Of a DNA stretch of 64,000 nt, positions 7,601-52,663 are shown piece after piece. Source of the DNA: a virus (taxonomy: Duplodnaviria > Heunggongvirae > Uroviricota > Caudoviricetes). The stretch is from the IMG/VR virus record IMGVR_UViG_3300026737_000001; one strand, 5' to 3'. Made by a program: the position numbers and the translations under genes. How positions within the stretch are numbered: position 1 is the first letter of the stretch; the number at the start of each line of letters is the position of its first letter. Under the pieces are notes generated by a model. That model searched no databases. It worked only from the letters and a program-made list of their open reading frames with translations, and was not told the origin of the DNA.

Positions 7601-7951
7601 CTAGGTCTATCAGACTTAGAAATTGATATCAGCGATTTTACTGAATGGACAATGCATGTATTTAGAAGAGGTATAGACGATAGTGAGTTTAGAACAATAT
7701 TCATCAACTCAAATGGAGAAGTTTATGTTGATAACGAAATAAACAATGAGTATGATGTTAGCTGGTTTGAGAGCACAAATGAAAAAATAACTATTAAAAG
7801 TGGGGCCATTGATATAGATGAGCTTTTAGTTTTTCCACAGATAATAGACCAAAAACAGATTGGCAGAATGGGTGGGTCACCGTTTTATGACCCTAACAGA
7901 AGTGTAAAAATTGATATGCCGGATTCAGTCGATATGGAGGTAATGCAATAA
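1649..7951 (+). CDS. giant (2100 aa) tail-fibre/adhesin protein with four LamG/ConA-like lectin repeats and FN3-like modules
   Basis: TTG start preceded by RBS AAAGGAG. Four repeats carry the 'L(N/E/S)FDGV(D/N)DYV' signature at aa ~43, ~1204, ~1468 and ~1667. The downstream motifs 'LVAYYP(M/F)' and 'NG(T/A)INGATW' are typical of LamG_3 domains. An FN3-like segment reads 'PPVSPNVTLVNNTSHSLSLSWTAEDSLSGLDYVRLYV'. Confidence 0.7.
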   Translation: MSLDYSIESRDWGNTDVNVNVTDPDGFNGVRHDNKYTALNFDGVDDYVEMSTIRPQTGALTISAWVKLKSYSTNGVSFIGGEGNTSSLGYWLGIRSSGEPTFALESQLNASSKISLNEPVYITGVWDGLEQRIYINGVLSNSISTTISVIDYTDIAPFRLAKITSLNTNRLWSGKIGRFELWGNALTETEINKYMRKAPFGTESGLISFWDINNNSGTTVFDMAGTNDGTIYGATWTDTNFLEGQFNNAKVIDNNLELIRFNNYASYNIDKDIVDLYSGTRYPPATDNYTYRDDGRIYSSLYVPRGTENIIATKATTALWGAGGFEGGDCEVITDTSCPVGDGKVIKLDATTNTSFEDLGSVTFTDTELNTGDIYTLSWWFKGNSQPAYADRIYYTDGTWSRATKTWKSQPSPDPNNWQYYEVEMLIQDNGGKTYSSWKVPRFFYGSTDDTSIGYFSPFQLEKKSYATDFINGTRTGAGLSYTPSSFGVDFNSKNWTVMAWVKYGETITAGTRSTAFELGSYYIAGETDIGVGTRTSTNRLNLYGYENKAGQFGGGINLTPSEAKDWILVALTCNSSKLTLHTVSNESGYQSVTDDANWDTSANPIRDNLFVGRYGWNNGEINGNIEDLVVVPYEITGSQIEKIGLQAENAAGISSGSYISKQIDLSNMNSVSNSNISWGYGFNNSYYIVGTGMEDNNSAHSILINGAEKSLDSRGLNLVRLDSNGDYIESKSYDTHGSSAESDACATYINGLPNTDYLIVASQDQAAGAASGASSGNLTQSCIDAIANRLSSTSISTLEYRSNWLIFSKIDGEKIVEKYRSRQTGNVKWAHDISVETSADNQATWQSVSNGGQIQSSMNSADSLYIKATLKTEDGTVSTFLDSLTVEIETPIQYKWDSNTTTPSLWDEITANPVTQSSDGIWYLHTKYFENNEPVTEYKGTFNIDKTPPVSPNVTLVNNTSHSLSLSWTAEDSLSGLDYVRLYVQKSDSGNAHVADIDIDGNGTTEYSLPIGTQTSYTVDGLEEYQHYRYYIRVYDKAGNIANDGYHLMITDDITEPVVGYNLNSRDWLNTNVDEVINVDDQAGSGVAEAWYKWTNSAVQPTDGWIVMGTTTNFNTSQSQEGEWYLHIKATDNYSNTAYDYSGPYKIDKTAPVINSTNITLDSPTNVYDTYTATIEWDVEDAYSGVNKTELGFYKGSNGLEFDGVNDYVDCGNSTELDITESITLECWVKGNHLGSWDRILAKGYDNSWFLGTFDTNGTARFRLDSNSSMIAQLESNTIIQDGKWHHISGTYDGAQLKLYIDGILENQTSGTGLINIVTSNLYIGDVDFTSSFAYSGVVKDARIWNTARTADQIKDNMYTKLTGNETGLVAYYPMDEDTGTTLIDKAGSNNGTINGATWDEGGWYYDENTLPDGITTNVDMDNITGGGVKSATFNNIPREVEIGAEFNVIDNATNNIKKRSDNNCLSFDGVDDYVKINNVGFNSEQITIEFWAKINTSSGKNYAFDTGDERDPLMKWDDGDTSVIIWGLGSTGYTNYSQGYKIGEFAHYALTYDNSTERLYINGDEVDSKTGSEIVNFDDLWIGNYNNLGYSIDGLIYDFQIWNKALTQTEIQNYMHNKPDPNDPNLVAYYPFSEGSGNTLYDVTPNSNHGTINGATWEKEYDYALSFDGNEYITIPDVAEEIHGGTEATIEFWCRADELYSTGSGIVQLSGFESTNGNLYPYNSFTKVYLDVFRTDRIGPIYTNSPVNELHHFAITTTPGTDGWRFYQNGELIHSATGPGSVSANYNDFTLGFNSGNRYLHGIMNDVRIWNTARTQTEIQENMHKELTGDESGLVAYYKMNEFSGNTLIDHAGDNDGRIEGAHWVDKEGNEIYTPRIINVRTVTTNSDYEMGINSDYKSQTEYETGINKDYQSPSSQIIDVLSKSYDSPTLYEIGKRTNYKSQTLYEAGINKTEGPAPSLQDILVLYDEPILVSGKFSQGIRLGLSDLEIDISDFTEWTMHVFRRGIDDSEFRTIFINSNGEVYVDNEINNEYDVSWFESTNEKITIKSGAIDIDELLVFPQIIDQKQIGRMGGSPFYDPNRSVKIDMPDSVDMEVMQ
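7310..7515 (+). repeat. degenerate short tandem peptide repeats (~'NxDYKSQTEYE(T/A)GINK') near the C-terminus of the giant protein
   Basis: Translated repeats 'INSDYKSQTEYETGINKDYQS...TNYKSQTLYEAGINKTEG' are visible by eye. Confidence 0.4.
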
Positions 7952-26963: not shown

Positions 26964-28085
26964 CTATCTTATACCTAAATCTAATTTGCCTTGTTTTAAA
27001 AGATTTTTACTAGCGTTTATATCCCTGTCGTGATTTGCACCACACTCACAAGTCCAAGTGCGAACTGATAAATCTTTGACTTTAGGATTTTTAGTACCAC
27101 ATTCTGAACAGGTTTGACTACTAGCAAAAAACCTATCTGCTTTGTGTAATATGCAATTATACCACTTGCTTTTGTATTCCAGCATTGTAGTAAACATATT
27201 CCAGGCACAATCAGAAATATGTTTTGCAAGTTTAGAATTTTTAAGCATACCTTTTACATTTAAGTCCTCTATGACTAAAAGTTGGTTCTCCTTTGTTAGA
27301 CTAGTTGACAGTTTATGCAAAAAGTCTTTACGAATATTTTTGATTTTTTCATGAACTTTAGCAATTTTCTTTTTAAGTTTATACCAATTGTTACTACCTT
27401 CTTCTTTACGAGCTAACCTTCTTTGTAATTTAGCAAGTTTATCTTGATATTTAGAAAGGTGCCTAGGATTTGAAATATGTTCACCATTAGAAGTAGTTAA
27501 AAAGTCTTTAATTCCTAAATCTAATCCTAATTCACATTGATTATCTTTAACAATAGTTACTAAGACTTGTTTAACATTAATTGATATATAATATTTACCT
27601 GCTCTAGATTTAGAAACTGTAACATTATTAATTTTACCTTTAACCTCTTTAGATTTAGCAAACTTAATCCAAGATAGTTTTGGTAGTTTAATCTTATTTT
27701 CTTTAATTTCAATATTTGTTGTACCACTAGGTCTAATGAATTTTTGTGTTCTATATGATAGCCTAGCTTTTCTTTTAGATTTAAACTTAGGATAATTATA
27801 TTTACCACTAAAGAAATTCTTAAAAGCTCTATCCAGGTCTTTAAGACTTTGCTGTAAAGCTATACTATCTACTTCTTTAAGCCACTCATATTCTTTTTTT
27901 AATTGAGGCAGTTGTCTGGAATATTTAGTATATGATTGATAATTTTCTTCTTTAGTTTTTGCTAAAAATTCGTTGTAAATGAATCTAGAACAACCAATAG
28001 TTTTATCAATTAATTCTTGTTGTTCTTGATTAGGATAAATTCTAAACTTATATGCTTTGTTAATTGGCTTAAATTTTTTAATCAT
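26964..28085 (-). CDS. tnpB: TnpB (IS605 OrfB-family RNA-guided nuclease/transposase accessory protein)
   Basis: N-terminal HTH 'YKFRIYPNQEQQELIDKTIGCSRFIYN', RuvC-like core, and C-terminal zinc finger 'CSECGTKNPKVKDLSVRTWTCECGANHDRDINASKN'. Confidence 0.85.
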   Translation of the reverse strand: MIKKFKPINKAYKFRIYPNQEQQELIDKTIGCSRFIYNEFLAKTKEENYQSYTKYSRQLPQLKKEYEWLKEVDSIALQQSLKDLDRAFKNFFSGKYNYPKFKSKRKARLSYRTQKFIRPSGTTNIEIKENKIKLPKLSWIKFAKSKEVKGKINNVTVSKSRAGKYYISINVKQVLVTIVKDNQCELGLDLGIKDFLTTSNGEHISNPRHLSKYQDKLAKLQRRLARKEEGSNNWYKLKKKIAKVHEKIKNIRKDFLHKLSTSLTKENQLLVIEDLNVKGMLKNSKLAKHISDCAWNMFTTMLEYKSKWYNCILHKADRFFASSQTCSECGTKNPKVKDLSVRTWTCECGANHDRDINASKNLLKQGKLDLGIR

Positions 28086-28474: not shown

Positions 28475-30154
28475 TTACTTTTTTTCCTGTGAACTCATTA
28501 CTGATTGTATCCATCTCCTCGTAGAAGCATTTTTTACAAAATCAACAAATAAAGGGTGTGGCCTCAAAGGTCTTGACTTAAACTCCGGATGAAACTGCAC
28601 ACCAACAAACCATCTGTGTTCTTTAAGCTCCATTGTTTCAACAAGCTTTCCGTCCGGTGATAGACCTGAGAATACAACCCCGTTAGCTTCAAATAACTTT
28701 CTGTAATCATTGTTAAACTCAAAGCGGTGACGATGCCTTTCTTTTAATTCTAAATGGTCGATGTAGGCGCTGTGAACTCTTGACTTTAAAGGCTTTGCTG
28801 TAAAATCATAAGAGCCAAGCCTCATTGTTCCGCCCTTGTTAACAACCTCTCTCTGCTCATTCATGAGGGTTATTACAGGGTTTTTAGTTTCACTGTCAAA
28901 CTCTAAGCTGTTGGCATCTTCTAGTCCTAACTCATTTCTGGCAAATTCAATAGCTGCAACCTGCATGCCAAGACAAATACCAAAGTAAGGGACCTTATTT
29001 TCTCTTGCATATTTAGCCGCCTTTATCTTGCCTTCAATGCCTCTCTCACCAAATCCACCAGGGACTAATATTCCATCATATCCTTTTAATGTTATTCTAA
29101 CTGCTTCATCACAGCTTAAATCTTCAAGCTCTTGAGAGTCAATAAATGTAATATCAACATCGAGATGATTTTTAAGACCTGCATGTATTAAAGCCTCTTT
29201 GATGCTGAGATATGCATCTTCGAGCTGTGTATATTTTCCCACAACTGCTATATTTACCTTTTCTTTTTTTTCTTGTAAATTTACAAGCATATGCCCCCAG
29301 TCATCTATATCTTGAGGATAACTCTGAAATGATTTAAAACCAAGTTTCTCCATTACCTTTTTAGCCATATCCTGACCTTCATATTTGAGAGGTATTTCAT
29401 AAATGTGCTCTACATCAACTGACTCAAATATTAATTCCTTGTCTATATCTCCAAATAAAGAAATCTTATCCCTTATTTCTTCAGGCATTTTATCTTTAAT
29501 TCTGCCGACTACAGCATCAGGCTGAACGCCAAGACTTCTAAGCTCCTTTAAGCTCTGCTGGGTAGGTTTTGATTTGTACTCTCCTACTTTATGCATGTAA
29601 GGAATTAATGTGCAGTGAACATGGAATGTGTTATCAAAACCTAAATCATGTCTTAACTGCCTTACAGCCTCCACAAAAGGGAAGCTTTCAATATCTCCTA
29701 CAGTGCCCCCGAGTTCAATTAGTATCACATCAGTCTTATCGTCTTCCGGCATGGTCATCCTGCGCTTTATCTCATCAGTGATATGAGGTATTACCTGTAT
29801 TGTCTTACCTAAGTATTTGCCTTTTCTTTCGTTATCTAAAACTTCCTGATAGATTTGACCTGTTGAGACAGAATTAATTCCAGAAAGCTCTATATCAATA
29901 AACCTTTCATAGTGGCCAAGGTCTAAATCAGTTTCTGCTCCATCATTGGTAACAAAAACCTCTCCGTGTTCTATAGGGTTCATTGTCCCAGCATCAACAT
30001 TTATATAGGGGTCAAATTTCTGAACCTTAATATTTAACCCTCTAGCTTTAAGTAACATTCCAAGCGATGCAGAAGTTAACCCCTTTCCTAATCCAGAGAC
30101 AACCCCTCCTGTCACGAATATATATTTAGTTTTCTTACTCACACTCATCAACAC
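28475..30154 (-). CDS. pyrG: CTP synthase
   Basis: Full-length 559 aa. 'KYIFVTGGVVSGLGKG' at the N-terminus, glutaminase-domain 'GICLGMQ' and 'GGTMRLG'. Confidence 0.9.
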   Translation of the reverse strand: MLMSVSKKTKYIFVTGGVVSGLGKGLTSASLGMLLKARGLNIKVQKFDPYINVDAGTMNPIEHGEVFVTNDGAETDLDLGHYERFIDIELSGINSVSTGQIYQEVLDNERKGKYLGKTIQVIPHITDEIKRRMTMPEDDKTDVILIELGGTVGDIESFPFVEAVRQLRHDLGFDNTFHVHCTLIPYMHKVGEYKSKPTQQSLKELRSLGVQPDAVVGRIKDKMPEEIRDKISLFGDIDKELIFESVDVEHIYEIPLKYEGQDMAKKVMEKLGFKSFQSYPQDIDDWGHMLVNLQEKKEKVNIAVVGKYTQLEDAYLSIKEALIHAGLKNHLDVDITFIDSQELEDLSCDEAVRITLKGYDGILVPGGFGERGIEGKIKAAKYARENKVPYFGICLGMQVAAIEFARNELGLEDANSLEFDSETKNPVITLMNEQREVVNKGGTMRLGSYDFTAKPLKSRVHSAYIDHLELKERHRHRFEFNNDYRKLFEANGVVFSGLSPDGKLVETMELKEHRWFVGVQFHPEFKSRPLRPHPLFVDFVKNASTRRWIQSVMSSQEKK

Positions 30155-31438: not shown

Positions 31439-32539
31439 TTATTCCATCGCTCCATTAATTTCATTTAAGATACCCATTATACCAGGCATTGAACCTATAC
31501 CACTTCCGTCTTCTGGAGTAACGATAATCTTCATCTTCTCATTGATACTTGTAACTGCTTTAGTCTGCAGGTCAAGCTTTCTATCAGCAAAATATACATC
31601 TGTATAAGCCTGCTGTTTTTCTAATTCTGCTTTCTTTTCCAGGATAGCTGCCTCATATTTATTTTTGGCTGCCATTTTAATAGCCTCTGCTTTTCTTTCA
31701 ATAGAATAAGCTTCTGCATCCGCTTTTCTTTCCTTCTCGTAAGCATCGGCATCAGCAGCTGCCTTCCTTTGAATAAGTTCCTGCTTTGACTCAGCTTCCT
31801 GTCTTGCAACCTCTTTAGCGTTAACCTCCGCCTGTCTTTTAGCATCTAATTCAGCAAGTTCTACCTCATTAATAGCTGATGTTTTACGGTTAATCTCTGC
31901 CTGAATTTCCTGTGGAACTAAGATATTTCCGAATTCAAATCTGATTAGTTTGATACCATATTTATCAGAGAGTGTATCTCTTAAATTCTCAAAGATTTCT
32001 GTCTGCATATCGCTTACCTTAGCTTGAAAATTGTAGACTGAAGTTTTTCTGGTAACTTTTTTAACTTCACCTTTCATAACCCCGTAAAGTTCGTCATCCA
32101 CGATAGTCTCGAAGTCTTTTTTAACGCCCCAGTTTTTGATAATCTTAGCAACATTCTCAGGCTGTACTGACATATAGATATCAACTATTACATTTTTACC
32201 TTCAATTGTTCCTGCTTCAATAGAATCGTCCTGCTTTGAGCCTTCCTGCTCGTTTTTAGTCCAGTTCCTGCTGATGATAGTAGTAGGTGATATATACATT
32301 TCTTGAGTAAAAGGATTTAGCCAAACCAATCCATATCGTGGTTGATTGATTACTGAAGTACCTTCTAATACAGGCACACTATTTTCTCCCGGGTTATCAG
32401 GGTCAATAGTTCTATCATATATATAACCAACAAAACCTGGCTCTATATTATCAGTCACCATGAAGAAACCTACACCTGCTAAAACCACTAAAATACCAAA
32501 TACTATAAGTCCTATAAAACCTTTTTGTTTATTATTCAT
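31439..32539 (-). CDS. SPFH/band-7 (prohibitin/HflC-like) membrane protein
   Basis: N-terminal TM, SPFH core, Ala/Glu/Lys-rich coiled-coil tail 'AEAIKMAAKNKYEAAILEKKAELEK'. Confidence 0.6.
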   Translation of the reverse strand: MNNKQKGFIGLIVFGILVVLAGVGFFMVTDNIEPGFVGYIYDRTIDPDNPGENSVPVLEGTSVINQPRYGLVWLNPFTQEMYISPTTIISRNWTKNEQEGSKQDDSIEAGTIEGKNVIVDIYMSVQPENVAKIIKNWGVKKDFETIVDDELYGVMKGEVKKVTRKTSVYNFQAKVSDMQTEIFENLRDTLSDKYGIKLIRFEFGNILVPQEIQAEINRKTSAINEVELAELDAKRQAEVNAKEVARQEAESKQELIQRKAAADADAYEKERKADAEAYSIERKAEAIKMAAKNKYEAAILEKKAELEKQQAYTDVYFADRKLDLQTKAVTSINEKMKIIVTPEDGSGIGSMPGIMGILNEINGAME

Positions 32540-35448: not shown

Positions 35449-35673
35449 TTACTTTTTATCTCTTATAGCTTCAGCGGCTGCAGACACAGCATCGTTGAAG
35501 TTTTTTATATATGTTCTTACTGTTTTTCCGCTCATATCAACCCTGTATTTTCTAGTCTTTTCATCTTCTGGAATTATAGAATATTCATTTATTATTGATA
35601 TGGTAGCAGCAATCATTGATTCATCATCATATACAGTCCAGTCTCCATTATCTTCTTTTAAAGTTTTAATCAT
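35449..35673 (-). CDS. hypothetical protein
   Basis: ORF. Confidence 0.3.
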   Translation of the reverse strand: MIKTLKEDNGDWTVYDDESMIAATISIINEYSIIPEDEKTRKYRVDMSGKTVRTYIKNFNDAVSAAAEAIRDKK

Positions 35674-35972
35674 TTTTTACCTCCTTTTCTCAAATCATAA
35701 AATAATATATACTCAGGATAACCAAGTAATTTAGATAGGCTTTCTTTATTTTCTTCATTGGGATTCCTGCCTTCAAAAACCCATGCCTGAACAGTTCTGG
35801 GACTAACATTTATTATTTTAGCTAAGTCAGAAATCTTCAAGTTAAGCGAAAACATAATTCCATATAATATTTTATTCTCTACATTCCACTCTCTCAACCT
35901 TCTAAAAGATTTTTTCTTTCCACCTTTTATTTTATTAGATATCTTTTTTCTTTCTTCTTCAAAAGAAGCCAA
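35670..35972 (-). CDS. XRE-like helix-turn-helix DNA-binding protein
   Basis: 'ISDLAKIINVSPRTVQAWVFEGRNPN' HTH. Confidence 0.5.
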   Translation of the reverse strand: MASFEEERKKISNKIKGGKKKSFRRLREWNVENKILYGIMFSLNLKISDLAKIINVSPRTVQAWVFEGRNPNEENKESLSKLLGYPEYILFYDLRKGGKK

Positions 35973-36002: not shown

Positions 36003-36031
36003 TAAAAAAAGAGAAGGCGAAATGCCTTCTC
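36003..36031 (-). terminator. rho-independent terminator (- strand)
   Basis: GAGAAGGC-gaaat-GCCTTCTC with an A-run on + (T-run on -), immediately 3' of the bactofilin-like gene. Confidence 0.6.
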
Positions 36032-36035
36032 AACC

Positions 36036-36458
36036 TTATATAGTATTTACACTTCCATTTGCTGTAATATCACCATTAACATCTTCACAATTTACACTGC
36101 CTTTAGAGTATACACTTCCAAAAACGTCGTCACAGTTAATACTTCCGTGAGAACTTATATCTCCATCGACATTGTTGCAGTTTACAGCAAGGTCAGTAGT
36201 TAAATTGCCGTTTATATCTCCGTTTATTTTTAGACATTTTATATCATCATCAATATCGTCTACTTTGCTTCCATCAACACGAACCTCACCATTTGAAATG
36301 CTAATATTGTTACCTTCATACATTCTTCCATTTATAACAACTTTACTTTTTAAATTGTTATCGCCAACAGAGTTTATATCTCTGCCGGCGACTTTATTAT
36401 TATTTCCAGAAACTAAAGAAGAATTTTTCTTAAAAAAATTCAATAATTTTTTAAGCAT
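36036..36458 (-). CDS. bactofilin-like polymer-forming (beta-helical repeat) protein
   Basis: Repeats 'GSINCDDVFGSVYSKGSVNCEDVNGDITANGSV' match the DUF583/bactofilin 'G.V.GDV' periodicity. Confidence 0.5.
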   Translation of the reverse strand: MLKKLLNFFKKNSSLVSGNNNKVAGRDINSVGDNNLKSKVVINGRMYEGNNISISNGEVRVDGSKVDDIDDDIKCLKINGDINGNLTTDLAVNCNNVDGDISSHGSINCDDVFGSVYSKGSVNCEDVNGDITANGSVNTI

Positions 36459-36484
36459 TTTTACCTCCTTATAAACTATAATTA

Positions 36485-38092
36485 TTACTTAAAAGGATTT
36501 ATCTTTTCAACTATTATTTGCAGTGACTTTCTGCCTCTATACTCATTCCAGCCAACTGTATATGTTAGGTTAACTTTACCCTCTCTCAAGGTTCTTTCCA
36601 TATCAGCCTGCCTAAAAGCTATAGCTTCAACCCCACCAGCTTTAAATTTAACATGTTCATTTCCTGGAAGAACCCAAACTGAAGTTATATCAACATTTTT
36701 TGAGTAGAATACAGGCTTCCTATTTCCCTCTCCACATGGTTCTAAAATTTCAAGGTCGTACAGTAGCTCTTCTGAAATTTCACCTATGTCTACCTCTTTA
36801 TCATAGGTTACTGGCATTAACTCTACACTTTCAGCAAGCTCATTTAGTCTTAAGCTAAAATCATCAAATTTGTTCATTGATACATTTAGGCCAGCTGCCA
36901 TCGAGTGTCCACCTGCAGAATTTAAGAGTTCTTCTTCTAAGCAGACTTTTAAATTTTCGTAAAGATTAAACGGCTCTATGCTTCTGCCTGAACCCTTACC
37001 ACTCTTTCTATCAACAACTATTGATGGCTTCTCAAAAGAAGATGATATTCTTCCTGAAATAAGTCCAACTATGCCCTGTGGTATATTGCCATTACAAACT
37101 ATTACTTTATCACTATCATCGATATCATTTTTCATTTCATCCAATATCTTTTTAGTGATGTCTTTTCTTTGAACGTTTTTTCTATAAAGCTCATCAGCTA
37201 ATTCAGAACGTTGATATTCATTGTCAGTATATAAAATATCGTATGCTGGTCGAGCGGTTTTAAGTCTTCCAGTAGCGTTGATTAGTGGGCCTATCTTAAA
37301 GCCTATGTCAGTTGCTGAAAGTTTTGTTTCATCAACCTCGTTAACTTCAAGTATATTTTTTAGGCCGGAATTCATTATTCCCTTTCTCATACGCTTTAAG
37401 CCTTCTCTGACGATAATTCTGTTTTCATCAACTAAAGGTACAACATCAGCTACTGTAGCAACTGCTACGATGTCGATTACATCTAAGAATAAGTCATCTA
37501 GAAGATACTGAGAAAACTTCCAGGCTGCTCCAGCTCCACAAAGTTCAGTAAAGGGATAATCTCCCGAGTTTGCTTTTAAATCTATAAAAGGAGCATCAAC
37601 ACCATCATCACTTTCGTGGTGGTCGATAACAACTACTTCCATTCCCAAAGAGCGTGCATAATCTATTTCAGCCTGATTAGATATACCGCAATCTAAAGTA
37701 ATTATTAACTTAGCTCCTTGATGGTTCATTATATCTATTGACCTTTTTGATAAGCCATAACCATCTTTAAATCTATTAGCAAAAAAGACATCCACCTTAG
37801 CATTGTTTGACAGCTTTTTTAGTGCAGTTCTCAGTATATAAGCAGATGAAACTCCATCAGCATCATAATCTGAATAAATTGCAATCTTTGAAAAGAAGGC
37901 ATACTCTTTTACCTTGTCTGCAAATTCCTTAATATTTGGTATCTTTTCTGGTTCGTGCAGGTCTTTTAAAGAGCCGTTGAGAAAGAGGTCTAAATCTTTC
38001 TCATTATCAAGACCTCTATCCACCATGAGCTCTGCTACTATTTTATTTATATTTAGTTTTTCTTGTATATCTTCTACTTTTAGTTTTTTCAA
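36485..38092 (-). CDS. recJ: single-stranded-DNA-specific exonuclease RecJ (DHH family)
   Basis: DHH motifs 'YSDYDADGVSS', 'DCGISN', 'VIDHHESDD' and 'GGGHSMAAG'. Confidence 0.75.
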   Translation of the reverse strand: MKKLKVEDIQEKLNINKIVAELMVDRGLDNEKDLDLFLNGSLKDLHEPEKIPNIKEFADKVKEYAFFSKIAIYSDYDADGVSSAYILRTALKKLSNNAKVDVFFANRFKDGYGLSKRSIDIMNHQGAKLIITLDCGISNQAEIDYARSLGMEVVVIDHHESDDGVDAPFIDLKANSGDYPFTELCGAGAAWKFSQYLLDDLFLDVIDIVAVATVADVVPLVDENRIIVREGLKRMRKGIMNSGLKNILEVNEVDETKLSATDIGFKIGPLINATGRLKTARPAYDILYTDNEYQRSELADELYRKNVQRKDITKKILDEMKNDIDDSDKVIVCNGNIPQGIVGLISGRISSSFEKPSIVVDRKSGKGSGRSIEPFNLYENLKVCLEEELLNSAGGHSMAAGLNVSMNKFDDFSLRLNELAESVELMPVTYDKEVDIGEISEELLYDLEILEPCGEGNRKPVFYSKNVDITSVWVLPGNEHVKFKAGGVEAIAFRQADMERTLREGKVNLTYTVGWNEYRGRKSLQIIVEKINPFK

Positions 38093-38107: not shown

Positions 38108-39182
38108 CTAATTAGCTTTCTTAAAGAAATCTCCTTCAATCAATTTAACTTTATCAACCAGCATTGCATTACTTTTATCTTTTTTACCTTCAAGTTTTAA
38201 TTTAAAACCTTTTTGAAATAAGTCATGATTGGAGCGATATGTGTCCGGAAAAACTACAAGTTTAATCTTATTTTTATCTGTTTTAACTTTTGCAAAAGCC
38301 ATTAATTTATTTGACTTTCTGGTTTTAACCTCTTTAGATTCTGTAATTATGCCTTCCACCTCTAAGACCTCTCCGCTTTTAGCAAAATCCCATTCAGAAG
38401 GATAGGTTAAAGATAAACCGATTGTGTCCATTTCGAATTCAATAATTTCTTCTTTTGTGGGTTCTGGTTCGTCAAAAACTCCAGAACCTTCCTCATTTTT
38501 GAAGGCATCAAATAGTGACTGCCTCATCTGTCCAAACTCTTTAATAGTCTTGTAATCTACAAGTAATTGTTTTCTGTTTTTGCCGAATGAATCCATTGCC
38601 CCAGCTTTAATTAAAGATTCAAAAGCTGTCTTATTAACAACTCTTGTATCAACCTTCTGGTACATATCATCTAGGTCTTTAAACGGTCTTTGATTCATTA
38701 TTTCGGTGCTTGCTTTTTTACCTAAACCATCAATCGCATTTAAACCCAGTCTTATCTTCCCGTTAACAGCTGTAAAGCGCCCTTCTGACTCGTTAATGTC
38801 AGGAGGTAGTATATCTATCTTCTTTTTATAGCAGTCCGAGAAATAGTCCGTAATCGAGCTGTCAGAGCCACTCTTTGCTGCTTCAACACTCATGATAGCT
38901 GCATAGAACTCTGCCGGAAAATGGTATTTAAGGTAAGCAGTGGCATAAGATATTAATGCATAGCAAGCAGAATGTGATTTATTAAAGCCATAGCCGGCAA
39001 AATATTCGATTAATCTAAACATTTCATCAGCAAATTCTTCTGTGTGGCCATTTTCTTTAGCTCCTGCTTTAAACTTAACTTTCATTTTTTCTAATACTTT
39101 TATTTTCTTTTTTCCCATTCCACGCCTTAATATATCTGCCTCTCCCAGGCTGAAGTTAGCAATTATCTGTGCAGTTTTCATT
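38108..39182 (-). CDS. dnaE: DNA polymerase III alpha subunit DnaE, exon 3 (C-terminal part)
   Basis: '(V)MKTAQIIANFSLGEADILRRGMGKKK' corresponds to DnaE 'YQEQVMQIAQ...LGEADLLRRAMGKKK'. The codon is completed by splicing (see intron). Confidence 0.85.
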
Positions 39183-40758
39183 CAATTATGTTATCGCAAA
39201 AGCTTTTTATCTTCTGCTTCTATATCTGCTATCTTTACAAATATAGTTCGGCATACATTTTCACCTTATTTAAGGTGTCGAACACTCGTGGAGAGATTAT
39301 ATTTTACATATAAATGTAAGTTCACTCTCTATGCTCTACGGTATTAACAGATTTTTAGGTCTATTAATTACCTCGGTATTATCACATATAATATCCATTC
39401 TTTTTCTTTTTCTTGGTAGCCAAATATTAGCATCTTTGTACATGTATTTATATAGCTTTTTAGAAAATGATATACCACTTTGAAAGTAATATAGATTAGT
39501 ACTTTTATGGATTGTTTTATTGCTTTTTATTACCTTTTGTATAGATTTAAGCATTTTTTTATTTCCACAAAACCCACTTCTCTTACTTTTTTTGATGCAA
39601 GTTATGCCATCTCCATCAAAAAACCCTCTAATAAAGTGTCTATACATATTATCAGGTATTTGAAAGGGAAATGATTCTTTTCCCGTCTTATTAGGTATAA
39701 CACCATATTCAAATAATTTTTCAGTCATATGTCTTGATGTTAAGCTACATCTGCAACAGTAACCTTTTTTTGAATATCCAGAATTTTTACCAACATAAGG
39801 ATTAAGAGAACTTTCTAAGTGGCTTAAAAACCCATAAATAATCTCTTTGTCCTTTAAGGCTACACCTAATTTTATAGAATATTGACCATTATAGATAGAA
39901 GTGTTTCCATCAGCCATTAAAAAACCCAAAAAATAAGCTTTTTCTTCTTTGTTTATTTTATCAAAAAAATCTTCTTTTTTTATGCTATTCTCTAATCCTC
40001 TTTTTATATCAAAACCTTCTTTCTTTAACCATAATGAAATAGTGTTTCTATTAATACCTGTTTCAGTTGCTATTTCACATAAATATAATCCTGATTTATA
40101 AAGATTAACAACTCTTTTTTTATAAACATCTTTATATCCTATTTTATCCCCATGATTAAATTTTGAATTTTTTGTTAGTCCAGCATTTCTTAAATATTTA
40201 TACACTGTACCAACACTTATATTCAATAATTTTGATATTTCTTTTCCAAACTTACCTTCATTATAAAGGTCCATTATTTTTTTGATTTTATATTCACTTA
40301 TTTTTTCAGTTTTTTTAGATTTTTGTGGATTTTGTAAACTTATATCAGATTCATTAATCCATTTATAAATTGTACTTCTGCAAGGCATAATTTCCATTTT
40401 AGAAATATCAGTAACAGAAATGCCATCGCCATACATGTTTAATGCTTTTATTTTGCGTTGACTACTTTTCATCTTTATCACCTTCTACATATTGAAAGAG
40501 TATATACCTAACCATTTCAGAAAAATTAATTCCTTTTTTGTCAGCTATTTTTTGAATGTCTTCTTCCAGCTGTTCCGGTAAATAAATATTTCTTCTTTTC
40601 ATTTTTATCATCTCCAACGTGTGGTATTTGTATCACCTTGCATACATTATTATAACACACATTGAATCATTTTTCAAATTATGGATATTTAGATAGTGGC
40701 TTCACCGATTTTGCTCGATAATAATCTAGCTTATTTCTAAGCTGGACGGCAATTTCTT
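39183..40758 (-). other. group I-like intron in dnaE (intron 2), 1576 nt, carrying a LAGLIDADG HEG
   Basis: Exon 2 ends '...CAGGU' (U before the 5' splice site). The intron ends '...AATTG' (terminal G). Joining gives CAG GTA ATG = Q-V-M, restoring the conserved DnaE YQEQVM. A stop codon follows the exon 2 junction in frame. Confidence 0.7.
39336..40481 (-). CDS. LAGLIDADG homing endonuclease (double-motif) with N-terminal HTH modules, intron-encoded
   Basis: 'YFLGFLMADGNTS' and 'FIRGFFDGDGITC'. Confidence 0.8.
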   Translation of the reverse strand: MIKMKSSQRKIKALNMYGDGISVTDISKMEIMPCRSTIYKWINESDISLQNPQKSKKTEKISEYKIKKIMDLYNEGKFGKEISKLLNISVGTVYKYLRNAGLTKNSKFNHGDKIGYKDVYKKRVVNLYKSGLYLCEIATETGINRNTISLWLKKEGFDIKRGLENSIKKEDFFDKINKEEKAYFLGFLMADGNTSIYNGQYSIKLGVALKDKEIIYGFLSHLESSLNPYVGKNSGYSKKGYCCRCSLTSRHMTEKLFEYGVIPNKTGKESFPFQIPDNMYRHFIRGFFDGDGITCIKKSKRSGFCGNKKMLKSIQKVIKSNKTIHKSTNLYYFQSGISFSKKLYKYMYKDANIWLPRKRKRMDIICDNTEVINRPKNLLIP

Positions 40759-42710
40759 ACCTGTTCCTGGTATACTAGGTAACCGTATGTTTCCTCTAAT
40801 TCCTTTTTTAAACTTTCGTGTGGATATTCTACTTTTTCATTACCGTGCATTCTGTCGAAATATTTTTCCACAATACCAGCTTCAAGTGGTCCCGGGCGAC
40901 CGAGAGCAAGTATAGCAATTATATGCTCGAACTTTGTAGGTTTCATTTTCTTTAACAGCCTTTTAAATAGTTGTGATTCTACCTGAAAAACCCCGTTGGT
41001 ATCAGCCTTCTGATAGATGTTTTTATATACATCTTTATCATCAAGAGGTAAATCCCAAATGTTTTGTACTGTAGGCTTATACTCTAAGCTATCATAATCT
41101 TTTCTGTTCTTGATAAACTTAATAGCCTCACCTATGATAACAACAGTCTTTAACCCTAAGAAATCCATCTTGAGCAAACCTAAATCTTCGCTATCGTGCA
41201 TCTCTGTCTGAGTTACATATGTTATCTCACCAGTCTGGCTGTTTTTGGTTCGTGCTAAAGGTGTGTAATCATCAACAGGCTCTGGAGTAATAACAACTGC
41301 TGAGGCATGTGTACCTAACTGTCTAGGCTTACCTTCTAGCTTTTGAGCTATATCGAATAGTTTTGGATACTGTTCAGCATACATCTTAAGTTCTTTACTT
41401 TCTTCCAGTGCTTCCTTGATTGAAATACCTGGGGTATCGGGAAATGCCTTTGATATCTCTTTATTCATTAGATTGTAATCATATCCTAATACTCGGCCTA
41501 CATCTTTAACAGCTGATTTAGCACCTAGTGTACCAAAGTTACAGATACTTGCTACATTTTCTTCTCCGTATTTGTCGATTACATACTGGATAACTTTTCC
41601 TCTATTTCCAAAATCTATATCAATATCAGGCATAGCAGTTCTTTCAGGATTTAAGAATCTTTCAAACAGCAGTCCATACTTAACAGGGTCTAAGGCTGTG
41701 ATGCCTAAAAGATAGGATAGAAGTGAGCCTGCTGCAGACCCTCGACCAGGACCAACAATGATGTTATTATCTTTAGCCCACTGAACATAATCTTCAACAA
41801 TTAAAAAGTAGGCAGGATACCCCTTCATATTTATAACCTCAAGCTCTGTATCAAGCCGTCTGGCGTATTTATCCATATCAATGTCTTTTTCTACAGCCAA
41901 CTCAAAAAGCTTCTTAAAGGCCCTTTCTTCAAGGTATGACTCAAGTGTATAACCTTCAGGAACTTCGAACTTAGGAAGGAGTAAATTACCTAAATCAAGC
42001 TCGACTGTATCACATTTATCGGCAATTTTTACTGTATTCTCAACTGCACTATCTCTGGCATCTATAAAATCAGACTCTACACTTTTTGCAAAAAGCTGAC
42101 TTTTTATCTCATCTTCACCCTTAAAATAGTATGAATCTCCATGAAATCTAAATCTGTCATTATCTTCAACTTTTGCCCCTGTTTGAATACATAGCATAAC
42201 GTCATGAGCTTCTATACTGTCCTTTTCTAGATAGTGCATATCTGATGTAGCTACAAGCTCTATATCTAATTTTCTAGCTAAATTTGCAAGCTTTGAGTTC
42301 ATTACGTACTGCTCTGATACATCGTTGGCCATAATCTCTATATAGAAATCATCACCAAAAAGTTTTTTATATTTTAGAGCTATTTCTTCTGCTCTTTCAT
42401 TGTTGTTATTCTCTAAGGCTCTTGGTATCTCTCCTGCAAGGCAGGCAGAACTTACTATAAGTCCTTCAGAATGCTCTTTTAAAATTTCAAAATCTATTCT
42501 TGGTTTATAATAAAAACCTTCTGTATTTGACTTACTCACCATCTTAAAAATATTATCCAATCCTTTTTTATTTTTAGCAAGGATTATAAGGTGGTGTCTT
42601 TTACCTTCTTTATCATGCATGTCATTAGCTACATATACTTCAATTCCAAATATATGTTTAATTTCTTCTTCTTTGGCTGCTTTATAAAGCTCTACGAAAT
42701 TATGGATACT
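40759..42710 (-). CDS. dnaE: DNA polymerase III alpha subunit DnaE, exon 2 (PHP remainder plus polymerase core)
   Basis: 'GPGRGSAAGSLLSYLLGIT', 'FLGLKT', ends 'GYLVYQEQV'. Confidence 0.85.
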
Positions 42711-43840
42711 CAATTGTGTTATCCTACAAGTTTTTTACCATGTAGTTCTTGCAGTTCATTTCCTGCAAGTTCAGCATACCTTTTGCCCACCAGCATTACC
42801 TGTGAGGACAGGAGTCTCTTGGAAAAATTATATTCTTTAATACAAATTAAAGTTTCATTTTCTATGCGTTGCCCCTGACTAATATTTTAAAATTAGCCTT
42901 CGGTTCGGATTGGCTTCTCAGCTTTCCCGCTTAATACTCCTGTAATAATTCTAAACATTCCTGTTTAGAACGGCAAATTTATCATGTTTTCTCTTTAAAT
43001 ATATATTAGCATCTTTATATAGGTAGTCTTTAATTTTCAAAACAGCAAGCCTTCCTGACTTTCTTATTTTGTACATATCAGATTTATGAAATTTTGGTTT
43101 TTGCATAAATATATCATTTTTTTCAAACTCATCAGATATTTCATTTAGCATATCTTTATAGCCCATTATATAAAATTCACAATTTAAAGAGTTCTTGTGA
43201 TGGTTATCATTTCTTATTGAATATGATATACATCCATCACCGTCAAAGTAACCTCTTATAAAATGATTCATATATTCTTCTTTTATATTTGGTAATGAGT
43301 TTGTGTTTTTTACACCTAGTTTTATTAAGTCTTGATATATTTTTTTATTGGTAAAAGACAGAGTATATTGTCCAATATTACTATATCTATCCTTTCTTGG
43401 TTTAATGTAATATAATGGACCTGCATAACCAACTTCATTTTTTACATCTAAAAGAAGTTTTTTATCATCTTCTTTTAAACCAATAGAGGCCACATAACTT
43501 CTTCCTGAAATATATACGCTTCCATCTGAATAAAATAATCCTAATATATAGGCTTTCTCTTTAGAATTTATTTCAGAAAAATATTTTTGATTTATTTTAT
43601 ATTGTGGTTGACCTCCTGGATTTCTTGATTTTATATTATACTCTTTGAAAGTCGTTTGTATTTTTGAAGCACTTACATTAAAATATTTTCCTATATCTTT
43701 ATGACTTAAACCATCATTATAAAGATTTTTCATTTCATTAATTTGTTTTGTAGAAAAAATAATTTTTTTAGTAATTTTTATCACCCTCTTTAGCTTAAAG
43801 GTGCTAATATATTTATAATTATAACATGATATTAATGTTT
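42711..43840 (-). other. group I-like intron in dnaE (intron 1), 1130 nt, carrying a LAGLIDADG HEG
   Basis: Exon 1 ends '...GAC CAC GGU' and the intron ends '...CACAATTG'. Joining gives 'TDHG|SIHNFVELYKAAK', collinear without gaps with Firmicute DnaE 'TDHGNMFGAIEFYKAAK'. Confidence 0.65.
42951..43784 (-). CDS. LAGLIDADG homing endonuclease, intron-encoded (paralog of 39336..40481)
   Basis: 'YILGLFYSDGSVY' and 'FIRGYFDGDGCIS'. The N-terminal HTH resembles the other HEG. Confidence 0.8.
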   Translation of the reverse strand: MIKITKKIIFSTKQINEMKNLYNDGLSHKDIGKYFNVSASKIQTTFKEYNIKSRNPGGQPQYKINQKYFSEINSKEKAYILGLFYSDGSVYISGRSYVASIGLKEDDKKLLLDVKNEVGYAGPLYYIKPRKDRYSNIGQYTLSFTNKKIYQDLIKLGVKNTNSLPNIKEEYMNHFIRGYFDGDGCISYSIRNDNHHKNSLNCEFYIMGYKDMLNEISDEFEKNDIFMQKPKFHKSDMYKIRKSGRLAVLKIKDYLYKDANIYLKRKHDKFAVLNRNV

Positions 43841-46199: not shown

Positions 46200-47387
46200 T
46201 TATTTTTTATATTTTTCTTTTATTAAAAATGAGACCTGTATCCCGATTCCTATTAATGCTGCAAGTCCTACACCGCTAAATTTATAAACTGTTATTCCAC
46301 TTAGTCCAAAAACTATCATCGTAGAAGCTATAAATGTATTCTTTGGACTTGTGAAATCGACTTTATTTGAAACAAAAGTTTTAAAGCCTAGAGTTGCTAT
46401 ATTACCAAAAAGAATAATCATAACTCCTCCAACAACAGCTGTTGGTATTGACTGCAGAAAAGCTGCTAATACACCTACAAAGCTAAATATAATTGCAAAT
46501 ATACCTGCATTTCTTGTAACTTTTGGGTCTCTTATCTTTAATAGACTAACTGCTGATGTTCCTTCTGAGTAAGTTGTATTTGGTACAGAGCCTACAAAAG
46601 AAAGCATTGTGCCTATTCCATCAATTAACATCGTCCTGTGCATCCCTGGTGACTTATAATACTTATTACCAGTTGCTTCACTTACTGCAAATACATCACC
46701 AAAATGCTCTATTGTTGGAGCTAAGGCAAATGGCAGTATGTAAATTGCTGCGCTTAAATTAAATCTTGGGAGTGTAAATTCAGGCATGCTTACTAGTGGT
46801 AGAGAAACAAATGTTACCTCTCCTAGAAGCAAAGCTGATATATATCCTGTTAAAATAGCTATCAAAACTGAATATAATCTTGTTACTCCTTCTGTAAACA
46901 TCATAAAATATCCTGCTGTAGATAATGTTATAATAGCTAAAAGCCAATTACCTGAAGCCATATCTATACCGGTATCTATCAGGGTCAACCCTATCAGCAT
47001 AATCATTGTTCCTGAGATTACTGGAGGGAAAAGTTTTTCTGAGATGAAGTCACTGCCTGTTTTTTTAATTACAAATGAAAATAAAACTTTCATAATTCCC
47101 GCAACACCTAATGCAAAGAAAACAGATGGCATATCCCATCTATCCTGTATATAAATTATTGGTGCTATATAGGCAAATGATGAGCCTAGAAAAATTATTG
47201 GTGCTCCATATTCACCTCTACCAAAATAATGCATGATAAGAGTCGATATACCTGCTGTAAATAAAACAATAGATGTTGAGATACCCGTCAAAAGTGGTAC
47301 CAAAATCGTAGCGCCAAAGCAGACTACAAGCATCTGTAAACCTAAAAGCCATGTGTTATTTCCAATATTGAAATTCTCTGATTTCAT
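46200..47387 (-). CDS. NCS2-family nucleobase (uracil/xanthine) permease
   Basis: N-terminus 'LQMLVVCFGATILVPLLTG...LFTAGISTLIMH...IFLGSSFAYIAPII' parallels UraA/PyrP. Twelve or more TM segments. Confidence 0.6.
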   Translation of the reverse strand: MKSENFNIGNNTWLLGLQMLVVCFGATILVPLLTGISTSIVLFTAGISTLIMHYFGRGEYGAPIIFLGSSFAYIAPIIYIQDRWDMPSVFFALGVAGIMKVLFSFVIKKTGSDFISEKLFPPVISGTMIMLIGLTLIDTGIDMASGNWLLAIITLSTAGYFMMFTEGVTRLYSVLIAILTGYISALLLGEVTFVSLPLVSMPEFTLPRFNLSAAIYILPFALAPTIEHFGDVFAVSEATGNKYYKSPGMHRTMLIDGIGTMLSFVGSVPNTTYSEGTSAVSLLKIRDPKVTRNAGIFAIIFSFVGVLAAFLQSIPTAVVGGVMIILFGNIATLGFKTFVSNKVDFTSPKNTFIASTMIVFGLSGITVYKFSGVGLAALIGIGIQVSFLIKEKYKK

Positions 47388-49621: not shown

Positions 49622-52600
49622 CTAACCCTCATATCCGTTTTCAGCATCACACTTAGGACAGAATTCGTGTTCTCCTGGCAGATACCCATGTATTGGACAA
49701 ATACTAAAAGTAGGAGTAATAGAGTAATAAGGAAGTTCATAATTTTCAGCAACTCTTTTAACAAACTTTTTGGTAGCCTCTATTCCAGGCATTCTCTCTC
49801 CTAGAAATAAATGTAAAACTGTTCCTCCTGTATAATTTTTCTGAAGTTCATCCTGCCAATCTAAAGCTTCAAAAGGGTCGTCTGTAGCCCCTACAGGTAG
49901 CTGAGTTGAATTAGTGTAATACGGGTCAGCATCTTCTGTATAAACCCTTTTATCATTAGCAAAAACAGCTTCTTCTTTCCCAAACTTATCAAGGTCTGAT
50001 TTGGCCAATCTATAGCTTGTTCCTTCAGCTGGAGTAGCTTCAAGGTTAAAAAGGTCACTTGTTTCTTCCTGGTACTCCACCATTCTTTCTTTCATTTTGT
50101 ACATAACCCATTTAGTAAATTTAATAGCTTCATGTTCTGTCATATCTTTTCCTAAGAAATTCATAACAGATTCATTCATTCCATTTAATCCGATTGTATT
50201 AAAGTGATTTTTCCAGTACTCTCCAAAACGTTCCTTAATACTTCTTAGATAAAACTTAGAATAAGGGTAAAGACCTGCATCTGTTAACTCTTCTAAAATT
50301 CTTCTTTTAATTTCTAAACTTTCTTTTGCAATATCCATTAATTCATAGACTCTCTCTAAATAATCATCAGTATTTTCTGCTAAAAGTCCAATTCTGGGCA
50401 TATTAAGTGTTACTACACCGATAGAGCCTGTCATAGGCGATGAGCCGAATAAACCTCCTCCTCGCTTTCTTAATTGCCGATTATCAAGGCGCAGCCTGCA
50501 GTTATGAGTCAAGATTCCAGTTGTGCCAACCGTAAACATTGGTTCTCCATCTTTGACTTCAAAACAATAAGCCGTTTGTTTTTCTTTTAGTTTTTCAACT
50601 TTATCTATTTTCATCCACAGTTTTGAGTCTTTTTTAAACCAAACGTCGCCATAACTATTTCTATTTAATTTGTAAAATAAAACAGCATAATTTGGATTAT
50701 CTCCTAGTCTTCCATCACTTTTTTTTCTGTCATCAGTATAAACATTGGTTGTTGTTCCCAGAGTAGCAGCTAACATATTTAAGCTTTCTACCATTTTTTC
50801 TGATGATGTATAAATTCTATTTTTGTTTCCTCCATCAGTTTCATAATAGCCATCAAATAATCCTGTTCTAAAGTGTTTGCTCATTTCAAAAACATTTGCT
50901 TTGAAGTATTTATTTAATGCATTATCCCCATCAACAAAACTTTCAATCATTGATTTTACTGCTGGATTATATGTTGAAAGTTTAACTACATTATTTTTTT
51001 CTTCTTTTTCGGTAAATTTAGCCCCAAAAAGTTTAGTCAGTATTTCTTTTAAATTTTCAAGCACTGTTAGCTTGGTATTATTATTTAAAGAAAAAACAGT
51101 TCCTGTATTTTTATCACAGCTTCCGTCTCCTGCAAAAGCTCCTATTAAATAGCCAAGGTCATAAGTTCCTCCTTCGCCTTTAAAACTTGTTAAGCTATAA
51201 GGTAGATAATAACCTTCTTTTAAGTCTTTTCCTGACATTTCTTCAATATCTTTATTTTTATTTTTGATAACAAAATTTAAATGTTCTTCAGTCATCTTTA
51301 TCTCATGCCCGTTAACCAATCTTACATTTATCATATTTTGATTTTCAAACTTATTGAATCGACCTTCTATAAATTTACCATCAGAATAGACTAATATATC
51401 ATCATTATCTTTAGTGTCATAATATGTGTGGTTAATTTGGGAGTATCTTACATTGTCATCACCTGTTTTAACTAATACCTTTTCTTTTCCGTCAAGTGGA
51501 CACATTGAGCGAGCGTCTTCAGCTTTCATATCGGAATTGACGAAGTTCGCAAAATATGGAATTCCGTACTTGGCTGTCATTTCCCAAACAGGATTTAATA
51601 TTTCGTTATCCCAATCAAAATCTGGAGTAATGTTATAAGTAGGAATAGGGAAAGAAAATACTCTTCCTTTTGAATCTCCCGCCAGCATAACCTCAGCAAA
51701 AGCCTTGTTAATCATGTCCATTTCCTTCTGGAAATTTTTAAGCGGCATGTCATAAAGCATTTCGCCACCAATAATAGCTGGGTCCTCTGCCATATTTGAT
51801 GGACAAACTAAATCCATAGTTAAATTTGTAAAAGGACTTTGAAATCCAACCCGTGTCGGTACATTTAAATTAAAAATAAATTCCTGCATAGCCTGATAAA
51901 CTTCATCATAATCAAGTCCATCATAAGATACAAACGGTGCAAGATAAGTATCGAAACTTGAAAAAGCTTGAGCTCCAGAACTCTCTCCCTGTAAAGTATA
52001 TAAAAAATTAACCATTTGTCCTAAAGCAGTTCTGAAGTGTTTTGGTGGTGCCGACTCTATCTTGGTTGACACTCCTGAAAAACCTTCCAATAATAAATCC
52101 TGAAGGTCCCATCCACAACAGTAATTACTTAAATTAGCAAGGTCGTGAATGTGCAAATCTCCACTTACATGCTTTTCTTTAATGTGTTTAGGGTAAATTT
52201 CATTTAACCAATAATGGCCTGTCACCTCGCTTGCTATATGATTATTTAAACCCTGAAGACTATAACCCATATTGGAGTTCTCATTAACTTTCCAATTGCT
52301 TAAATCAAGGTAATTATTAACTGTATCATTTATTCCATTGTATAGTTTTTGAGCATCTCTATACTTTTCATGCTGCTTTCTATATAATATATAGTTTTTT
52401 GCTATTTCATAATGTCTGTTTTCCATTAATTCATACTCAACAATATCCTGTAAAGTCTCAACATTAACAGAGTTTAATCCAGAACTAATCATTCCACTTA
52501 TATTATCTTCTATTTCTTCAACAATATTATTTGCAACAAAATTCCAAAAATCTTCACCTTTTTTTTCTGCTGTTGCCTTCGCTGCTTTATAAACTGCATC

Positions 52601-52663
52601 TTTAATTTTTTTATTTTTATATTCTACTTTTCTTCCGTCTCTTTTAATTACATAAAACGACAT
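49622..52663 (-). CDS. nrdD: anaerobic ribonucleoside-triphosphate reductase NrdD (class III), intein-containing
   Basis: N-terminal ATP-cone, C-terminal zinc ribbon and glycyl region '...CPIHGYL...CPKCD'. 1013 aa, of which 334 aa are intein. Confidence 0.8.
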   Translation of the reverse strand: MSFYVIKRDGRKVEYKNKKIKDAVYKAAKATAEKKGEDFWNFVANNIVEEIEDNISGMISSGLNSVNVETLQDIVEYELMENRHYEIAKNYILYRKQHEKYRDAQKLYNGINDTVNNYLDLSNWKVNENSNMGYSLQGLNNHIASEVTGHYWLNEIYPKHIKEKHVSGDLHIHDLANLSNYCCGWDLQDLLLEGFSGVSTKIESAPPKHFRTALGQMVNFLYTLQGESSGAQAFSSFDTYLAPFVSYDGLDYDEVYQAMQEFIFNLNVPTRVGFQSPFTNLTMDLVCPSNMAEDPAIIGGEMLYDMPLKNFQKEMDMINKAFAEVMLAGDSKGRVFSFPIPTYNITPDFDWDNEILNPVWEMTAKYGIPYFANFVNSDMKAEDARSMCPLDGKEKVLVKTGDDNVRYSQINHTYYDTKDNDDILVYSDGKFIEGRFNKFENQNMINVRLVNGHEIKMTEEHLNFVIKNKNKDIEEMSGKDLKEGYYLPYSLTSFKGEGGTYDLGYLIGAFAGDGSCDKNTGTVFSLNNNTKLTVLENLKEILTKLFGAKFTEKEEKNNVVKLSTYNPAVKSMIESFVDGDNALNKYFKANVFEMSKHFRTGLFDGYYETDGGNKNRIYTSSEKMVESLNMLAATLGTTTNVYTDDRKKSDGRLGDNPNYAVLFYKLNRNSYGDVWFKKDSKLWMKIDKVEKLKEKQTAYCFEVKDGEPMFTVGTTGILTHNCRLRLDNRQLRKRGGGLFGSSPMTGSIGVVTLNMPRIGLLAENTDDYLERVYELMDIAKESLEIKRRILEELTDAGLYPYSKFYLRSIKERFGEYWKNHFNTIGLNGMNESVMNFLGKDMTEHEAIKFTKWVMYKMKERMVEYQEETSDLFNLEATPAEGTSYRLAKSDLDKFGKEEAVFANDKRVYTEDADPYYTNSTQLPVGATDDPFEALDWQDELQKNYTGGTVLHLFLGERMPGIEATKKFVKRVAENYELPYYSITPTFSICPIHGYLPGEHEFCPKCDAENGYEG
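50501..51502 (-). mobile_element. intein with LAGLIDADG homing-endonuclease domain inside NrdD (aa 388-721)
   Basis: Starts with Cys in 'ARSM|CPLDGKEKVLV' and ends 'GILTHN|C'. LAGLIDADG motifs 'YLIGAFAGDGS' and 'FRTGLFDGYYETDGG'. Extein junction 'ARSM-CRLRLD'. Confidence 0.7.

Follow-up and report, generated by a model that had tools for sequence, protein, structure and literature searches.

We analysed a 64,000-nucleotide stretch of viral DNA (IMG/VR record IMGVR_UViG_3300026737_000001, Caudoviricetes; hereafter the window) with a focus on an open reading frame (ORF) of 140 codons on its minus strand, at positions 36036–36458. In our best explanation, to which we assign a probability of about one half, the product is a membrane-tethered, self-stacking beta-helix scaffold or adaptor, a small cytoplasmic protein of four parts. 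It matches the PHROG 3163 family (phrog_3163, expectation value (E) = 8.6e-17, 62.2 bits), with residues 37–139 aligned to profile positions 13–119 of 121 (107 positions), and is a direct member of that family, whose function is uncharacterised. An earlier note on this stretch had proposed a bactofilin-like, polymer-forming protein in a phage replication module. We find instead a separate sequence family that has its fold class and modular logic in common with both bactofilins and the C-terminal domain of MinC.

The gene is real and looks expressed, because it combines a ribosome-binding site, a terminator and a low ratio of non-synonymous to synonymous substitution (dN/dS). The ORF runs from an ATG through 140 codons to a stop codon, and a Shine–Dalgarno sequence, AGGAGG (cctcct on the plus strand), lies 5 nt ahead of the ATG at 36464–36469. 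Past its other end, at 36003–36031 on the same strand, is an intrinsic terminator-like hairpin, GAGAAGGC-ATTTC-GCCTTCTC, with a T-run; the hairpin itself extends from 36031 to 36011, begins 5 nt past the stop codon and would close a dnaE–recJ–ORF transcription unit. Compared with metagenomic relatives of 72–77% identity, dN/dS is ~0.11–0.17, and purifying selection acts on the gene. The window contains no further copy of the PHROG 3163 family.

All four parts of the protein can be delimited. Residues 1–12 (MLKKLLNFFKKN; 36423–36458) are a cationic amphipathic helix and a proposed membrane-targeting peptide, with helix predicted by AlphaFold2 at residues 3–10. A Ser/Asn/Gly-rich linker follows at residues 13–37 (36348–36422), predicted to be flexible (predicted local distance difference test (pLDDT) scores of ~50–55 and no secondary structure). 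Residues 38–68 (36255–36347) form a beta-hairpin or meander subdomain with strands at 38–42, 45–49, 52–55, 58–61 and 64–68; this hairpin subdomain is kept across the family, with the consensus INGKxYxGxxIxIxNGxVxIDG. The remainder, residues 72–140 (36039–36245), consists of right-handed beta-helix windings, ~4–5 in number and unusually tight at 15 residues per turn: a degenerate 19-residue unit (72–90), three clean 15-residue turns and a partial last turn (136–140).

The three clean units are in register, at residues 91–105 (AVNCNNVDGDISSHG), 106–120 (SINCDDVFGSVYSKG) and 121–135 (SVNCEDVNGDITANG), and share the consensus (A/S)(V/I)NC..V.G.(I/V)...G. Four cysteines, Cys75, Cys94, Cys109 and Cys124, are stacked in register as a Cys ladder. 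When residues 61–140 were compared with themselves, peaks appeared at an offset of 15 (BLOSUM sum +74, 17 identities in 65) and of 30 (+45); all other offsets between 3 and 39 were negative save for +3 at offset 21. The repeat motif read earlier from the sequence, G.V.(C/G).DV.GD(I/V), is thus borne out by the three clean units, the degenerate ones and the offset-15 periodicity.

To model the fold we used a 99-sequence family alignment (A2), which also served for a second search and for profile comparisons. The resulting AlphaFold2 model is all-beta, with a mean pLDDT of 85.5 and values above 90 for approximately residues 40–140, and supersedes an earlier model from 5 sequences (pLDDT 69.5) for which Foldseek was uninformative. 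In the model the windings take the beta-helix fold that had been anticipated, right-handed and triangular in shape and hydrophobic in its core; the handedness follows from comparison with left-handed hexapeptide-repeat proteins, which align only at a root-mean-square deviation of 10–12 Å. The best structural matches of the model were the MinC C-terminal domain 4V02 (score 8.2; 1.7 Å over 62 residues), the bactofilin TtBac (7.8; 2.4 Å over 72), Thermotoga maritima MinC (7.8; 2.4 Å over 69), a Ca2+-dependent antifreeze beta-helix (7.5; 2.0 Å over 80) and the bactofilin BacA (7.5; 2.0 Å over 65, 25% identity). The C-terminal domain of MinC fits as well as the bactofilins or better, and the fold therefore does not single out bactofilin.

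Bactofilins are defined by the PF04519 domain, by a right-handed triangular helix that makes six turns of ~17 residues around a hydrophobic core, and by non-polar filaments assembled through N–N and C–C contacts (preprint 10.1101/617639; PMC12448750). They reach the membrane through an N-terminal peptide with the consensus MFSKKKK (PMC12448750) or through transmembrane helices, and membrane binding and polymerisation reinforce each other (preprint 10.1101/617639; PMC12448750). If the 140-residue protein were a true bactofilin, it would form such filaments and serve, as a counterpart of PhuZ, to organise the phage's replication machinery or compartment. Several features point this way, among them the hydrophobic, basic N-terminal peptide that resembles a membrane-targeting sequence, its transcription in this phage together with recJ and dnaE, the naming by JGI of a few relatives as 'CcmA (bactofilin family)', and matches to PF04519 at E ≤ 0.01 in 11 of the 99 homologues. 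Four homologues that were tested exceed the PF04519 gathering score of 27.9 bits (P0190, 43.0; P0246, 41.9; P0192, 37.3; P0029, 28.4 bits); three are many-winding proteins of the helix-turn-helix (HTH) type and one is a 127-residue standalone protein that barely passes, at 28.4 bits. They show a resemblance in sequence that lies at the fringe of the PF04519 model.

The direct tests went the other way. PF04519 gave no match, even at E ≤ 10, to the protein, to its 77%-identical relative P0003 or to the family consensus, an outcome that the earlier note had itself named as a refutation. The A2 profile found a bactofilin (6RIA) among PDB sequences only at E = 1, and phmmer searches of PDB sequences with a PF04519-positive homologue found none. 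For profile–profile comparison we assembled 19 CcmA bactofilins (A3), a taxonomically narrow set from Helicobacter pylori and other Campylobacterota; the hits from which it was taken share 93–94% identity with the probe sequence used to collect them, have the PF04519 domain and go under the name bactofilin at NCBI. Comparison of A2 with this narrow set by hhalign gave a probability of 3%. Cross-searches with hidden Markov models (HMMs) reached top scores of 14–16 bits, barely above reversed decoys (9–12), with 5–9.5 for shuffled sequences; there is a faint signal beyond composition, most of it generic solenoid patterning. The winding period also differs, at 17 residues in 46 of the 56 CcmA-type bactofilins scored as against 15 in 250 of the 259 family members, and the hairpin subdomain and the variable winding number are further departures. 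Bactofilin polymerisation is nucleotide-independent, and the C-terminal interface of bactofilins includes a Phe that is conserved (F130 in BacA, F105 in TtBac). In our protein the last winding, SVNCEDVNGDITANGSVNTI, has no conspicuous Phe, the alignment to BacA being too unreliable to judge that residue. Because the PF04519, profile–profile, cross-HMM and winding-period tests all went against it, membership in the bactofilins is not supported and we consider a true bactofilin unlikely. The likeness of fold and design is genuine, and the original proposal is supported in part: its beta-helix stands, and the layout of N-terminal peptide, linker and beta-helix parallels that of bactofilins, but its family assignment is not borne out by PF04519, hhalign or winding period.

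The design is most evident at the N terminus. The peptide MLKKLLNFFKKN has a net charge of +4 and a hydrophobic moment of 0.64, a moment equalled by only 2.8% of shuffled sequences, and close relatives retain it as MF(K/D)K(L/I)(L/F).(F/L)FK. Followed as it is by a low-pLDDT linker, it is similar to, not identical with, the bactofilin consensus MFSKKKK (PMC12448750). N-terminal tails vary in the family: among 260 family sequences, 117 have none and start at the hairpin subdomain, 55 were flagged as HTH fusions by a rough heuristic, at least 20 are predicted to have a transmembrane helix with Lys/Arg after it, and at least 20, with more by eye, begin with MF/ML...K/R peptides. Examples of the last are MFFKKLFKQK, MFDKLFKKRG, MNFFKKKS and MGFFKRKN, as well as MRKLLRGLMSNFK of KVP40.0139. 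By analogy with bactofilins, which these recurrent basic peptides and transmembrane helices mirror, we argue that many standalone members may do their work on the cytoplasmic side of the membrane.

We propose that the protein is anchored by its N-terminal helix on the host membrane's inner face and that the beta-helix would self-associate through its uncapped end or ends into dimers or short stacks, the outcome being a rigid membrane-bound scaffold or adaptor in the replication phase of infection. In this proposal the attachment to membranes, the self-association and any client or target are all inferred. Several observations weigh against it. Foldseek found no significant match in the PDB (best E = 0.39; BacA, E = 1.4). 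The hairpin subdomain could cap the helix at its N-terminal end, in which case at most tail-to-tail dimers would form, not filaments. Since 117 of 260 family sequences lack an N-terminal anchor, tethering is not common to all members, and the neighbourhoods of the gene differ between relatives, so that no client can be deduced from them. The number of windings varies within the family from ~4 to more than 12, and one member, P0005 (621 residues), carries three tandem units of hairpin and helix; variable windings and tandem units are more in keeping with a rod-like spacer or an oligomerisation module than with a polymer subunit of fixed form.

The family is large. A word-indexed search returned four close relatives only, whereas HMMER, run in full over 1.84 billion cluster representatives, yielded 991 relatives at E ≤ 1e-3, with 217 at E ≤ 1e-10, most of them 100–180 residues long and covering residues ~38–138. 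Searches of phage records by tblastn located the module in 66, comprising 39 from Bacillus phages (Herelleviridae and relatives), 24 from Vibrio phages (mostly KVP40-like, ~245 kb), 2 from Brevibacillus phage Sundance and 1 from a Xanthomonas phage, and nearly all are annotated as hypothetical. A Bacillus spizizenii copy sits among prophage-type genes (YopX, SLT/M23 lysin) in what we read as an SPbeta-like prophage, and two copies are on contigs of 454 kb and 561 kb that resemble very large phages. Scans of the protein against Pfam, NCBIfam and PADLOC gave nothing significant; a weak match to LiaX (E = 0.35) was dropped. In the literature we found no paper on phage-encoded bactofilins or on the PHROG 3163 family, and an occurrence of 'DUF583' in the DefensePredictor paper proved to be a false word match to DUF5830.

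Two phage homologues carry functional names: gp233 of Bacillus phage vB_BanH_Emiliahah (locus L001, 3995–4375) is annotated 'structural protein', and gp116 of Brevibacillus phage Sundance (L010, 3019–3342) 'putative leukotoxin LktA-like protein'. Both are probably artefacts of remote beta-helix similarity, not functional evidence. Taken at face value, and together with a sequence that is 28% Asp plus Asn, they would suggest a virion, adhesin-like or Ca2+-binding (RTX- or antifreeze-type) beta-helix structural protein. The sequence, however, has no signal peptide and no GGxGxD nonapeptides, the gene belongs to a replication operon on the strand opposite to the tail and adhesin genes, and the annotations come without experimental note and may stem from remote matches to PDB 'structural protein' entries. 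On motif, period and gene position we rejected the RTX/Ca2+ and virion readings, which we regard as highly improbable.

The second search, with A2, showed that many relatives are fusions to an N-terminal HTH of the XRE type. In Clostridia (P0156–P0257, for example P0174 and P0190; loci L012, L014 and L016) the module and its hairpin constitute the C-terminal domain of XRE HTH regulators; these are ordinary chromosomal genes with neighbours unrelated from genome to genome, and some have 12 or more windings. The hosts, too, are probably Clostridia; the phage DnaE nearest in sequence is that of a Moorella phage, and a separate small HTH_3 gene lies directly 3′ of the ORF (35670–35972, minus strand). 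The protein might on these grounds be a free-standing oligomerisation domain of such host regulators, one that stacks on the ends of their helices and caps, sequesters or relocates them to the membrane as a dominant-negative anti-repressor. Yet the HTH_3 gene stands past the terminator and is absent beside the closest relatives, standalone members occur in Vibrio and Bacillus phages as well, and the searches made returned no HTH fusion from those host groups. As oligomerisation of the fused domain is itself an assumption, we hold an anti-repressor to be very unlikely.

Every gene from ~20 kb to 64 kb is carried on the minus strand, and gene orientation and GC skew change near 20 kb. In the order of transcription the region contains the N-terminal part of DnaE (PHP domain, NTPase domain and most of the finger; 40737–42713), an ORF with HTH and LAGLIDADG domains (39336–40481), the C-terminal part of DnaE (end of the finger, HHH_6 and OB fold; 38108–39181), RecJ (DHH, DHHA1 and RecJ_OB; 36485–38092), the 140-codon ORF, the terminator and the HTH_3 gene. 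The earlier note had placed the ORF directly upstream of recJ and dnaE. The neighbours are indeed these, but with all of them on the minus strand transcription reaches the ORF last, and it lies downstream, at their 3′ side. Its assignment to a phage replication module holds, given the dnaE–recJ–ORF order, the shared terminator and a window that is phage-like, with NrdD, a DnaB-type helicase, a DnaD-like loader and a 2100-residue adhesin-like protein. The nearest match of DnaE is in a 177-kb Moorella phage (50% identity), and megablast found no nucleotide-level match to the region in known phages; the phage is novel.

Several other genes of the window deserve mention. DnaE (Pol III alpha) is split across 38108–43784 (minus strand), with a second LAGLIDADG ORF at 42951–43784, which looks like invasion by homing endonucleases or introns, or like a truly split polymerase. 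The anaerobic ribonucleotide reductase NrdD (1013 residues; 49622–52663, minus) has a LAGLIDADG intein within its catalytic domain, and a TnpB/IS605 OrfB-type (Cas12f-like) transposon protein is encoded inside the phage genome at 26964–28085 (minus). A full-length CTP synthase (PyrG; 28475–30154, minus) and a permease of the xanthine/uracil family, a polytopic membrane protein (46200–47387, minus), are unusual auxiliary genes for nucleotide supply. An SPFH/Band 7 (flotillin-like) membrane-scaffold protein encoded at 31439–32539 (minus), about 3.5 kb further 3′ than the beta-helix gene, is a candidate second membrane organiser in the same phage. The 2100-residue protein (1649–7951, plus strand) has four Laminin_G_3 domains together with fn3 and ILEI domains and is probably a tail fibre or adhesin.

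The replication-gene setting is not retained by relatives. Homologues of 77% and 72% identity are flanked by small, unrelated proteins, by a protein carrying an Nlig-Ia domain and by a thymidylate kinase. A 67%-identical homologue (L018/L019, in the 170,948-bp contig IMGVR_UViG_3300035034_002798) follows two radical-SAM genes and a beta-clamp gene, with an AAA ATPase nearby; it sits in sequence present at both contig ends, which we read as a terminal repeat, and the contig is therefore probably a complete genome. In Bacillus and Vibrio phages the homologue falls within runs of small hypothetical genes, and in phage PBC2 RecJ is ~2.7 kb away. We ruled out RecJ as a conserved 5′ neighbour, as it is absent from that position in L003, L004 and L019, and likewise the HTH_3 gene as a conserved partner, since the downstream gene of relatives is unrelated and the terminator separates the two. 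Adjacency to RecJ and DnaE is specific to this phage, and there is no conserved partner gene. A loose tie to regions of DNA metabolism is seen repeatedly, but these take up a large part of a large phage genome. The loss of this adjacency in relatives of 67–77% identity, and the position of distant phage homologues among small early genes, speak further against a replication-organising bactofilin.

Genes for host takeover are typically small and lie in the early and middle arrays of large phages. The PHROG 3163 genes are small, widespread and found in such arrays, and a membrane tether would place the protein where the division machinery acts. It could thus be a host-targeting effector on a MinC-like beta-helix that binds a host protein at the membrane, such as MinD, FtsZ or a host bactofilin, and blocks division or remodels the envelope, with self-assembly not its main activity. 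We think this quite unlikely: there is no similarity to the Pfam family MinC_C at E ≤ 10 and no conserved partner gene, and a module that doubles as the C-terminal domain of chromosomal XRE regulators fits oligomerisation better than a specific anti-host surface.

Were the membrane-tethered scaffold we favour to self-assemble on the membrane, the short list of phage cytoskeletal elements, which includes PhuZ, TubZ and actin-like proteins, would gain a bactofilin-like one that is independent of nucleotides, and a function would be assigned to a family found in well-studied groups, namely Bastille-type Bacillus phages, KVP40-type Vibrio phages and an SPbeta-like prophage. If it is merely a dimeric adaptor, the gain is a routine annotation of a hypothetical phage protein. 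A broader proposal, which we consider unlikely, is that PHROG 3163 represents an unrecognised class of virus-encoded, membrane-bound beta-helical polymers: a 15-residue-per-turn cousin of bactofilins in large Firmicutes and Vibrio phages and in probable phage contigs of 450–560 kb, scaffolding the machinery of replication or host takeover, with its module recruited by Clostridial XRE regulators. The 15-residue winding, the hairpin subdomain and the XRE fusion make the family a useful comparison for why beta-helices polymerise or stay capped.

Within PHROG 3163, most members lack the 37-residue N-terminal extension of this copy, that is, its amphipathic helix and linker. Bactofilins (BacA of Caulobacter crescentus, 2N3D; TtBac of Thermus thermophilus, 6RIA/6RIB; CcmA of H. 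pylori) resemble the protein in their small size and in a hydrophobic, basic peptide or a transmembrane helix, putatively of like function in the phage family, that precedes a flexible linker. They differ in having a fixed six windings of ~17 residues, whereas our protein has ~4–5 (variable in the family) of 15 residues, adds an N-terminal beta-hairpin subdomain and a Cys ladder, and is without the proline-rich C-terminal tail. The C-terminal domain of MinC (4V02 chain D, 1HF2, 5XDM, 6RIQ) is only 10–16% identical in structural alignment; the phage protein has no N-terminal FtsZ-inhibiting domain and no MinC_C Pfam match, and carries a membrane peptide of its own, whereas MinC relies on MinD. 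The likeness to PhuZ and TubZ is one of idea only, namely a phage-encoded structural protein expressed with replication genes: the protein has neither a tubulin or actin fold nor a nucleotide-binding motif, and the window has no sign of a nucleus-forming jumbo phage.
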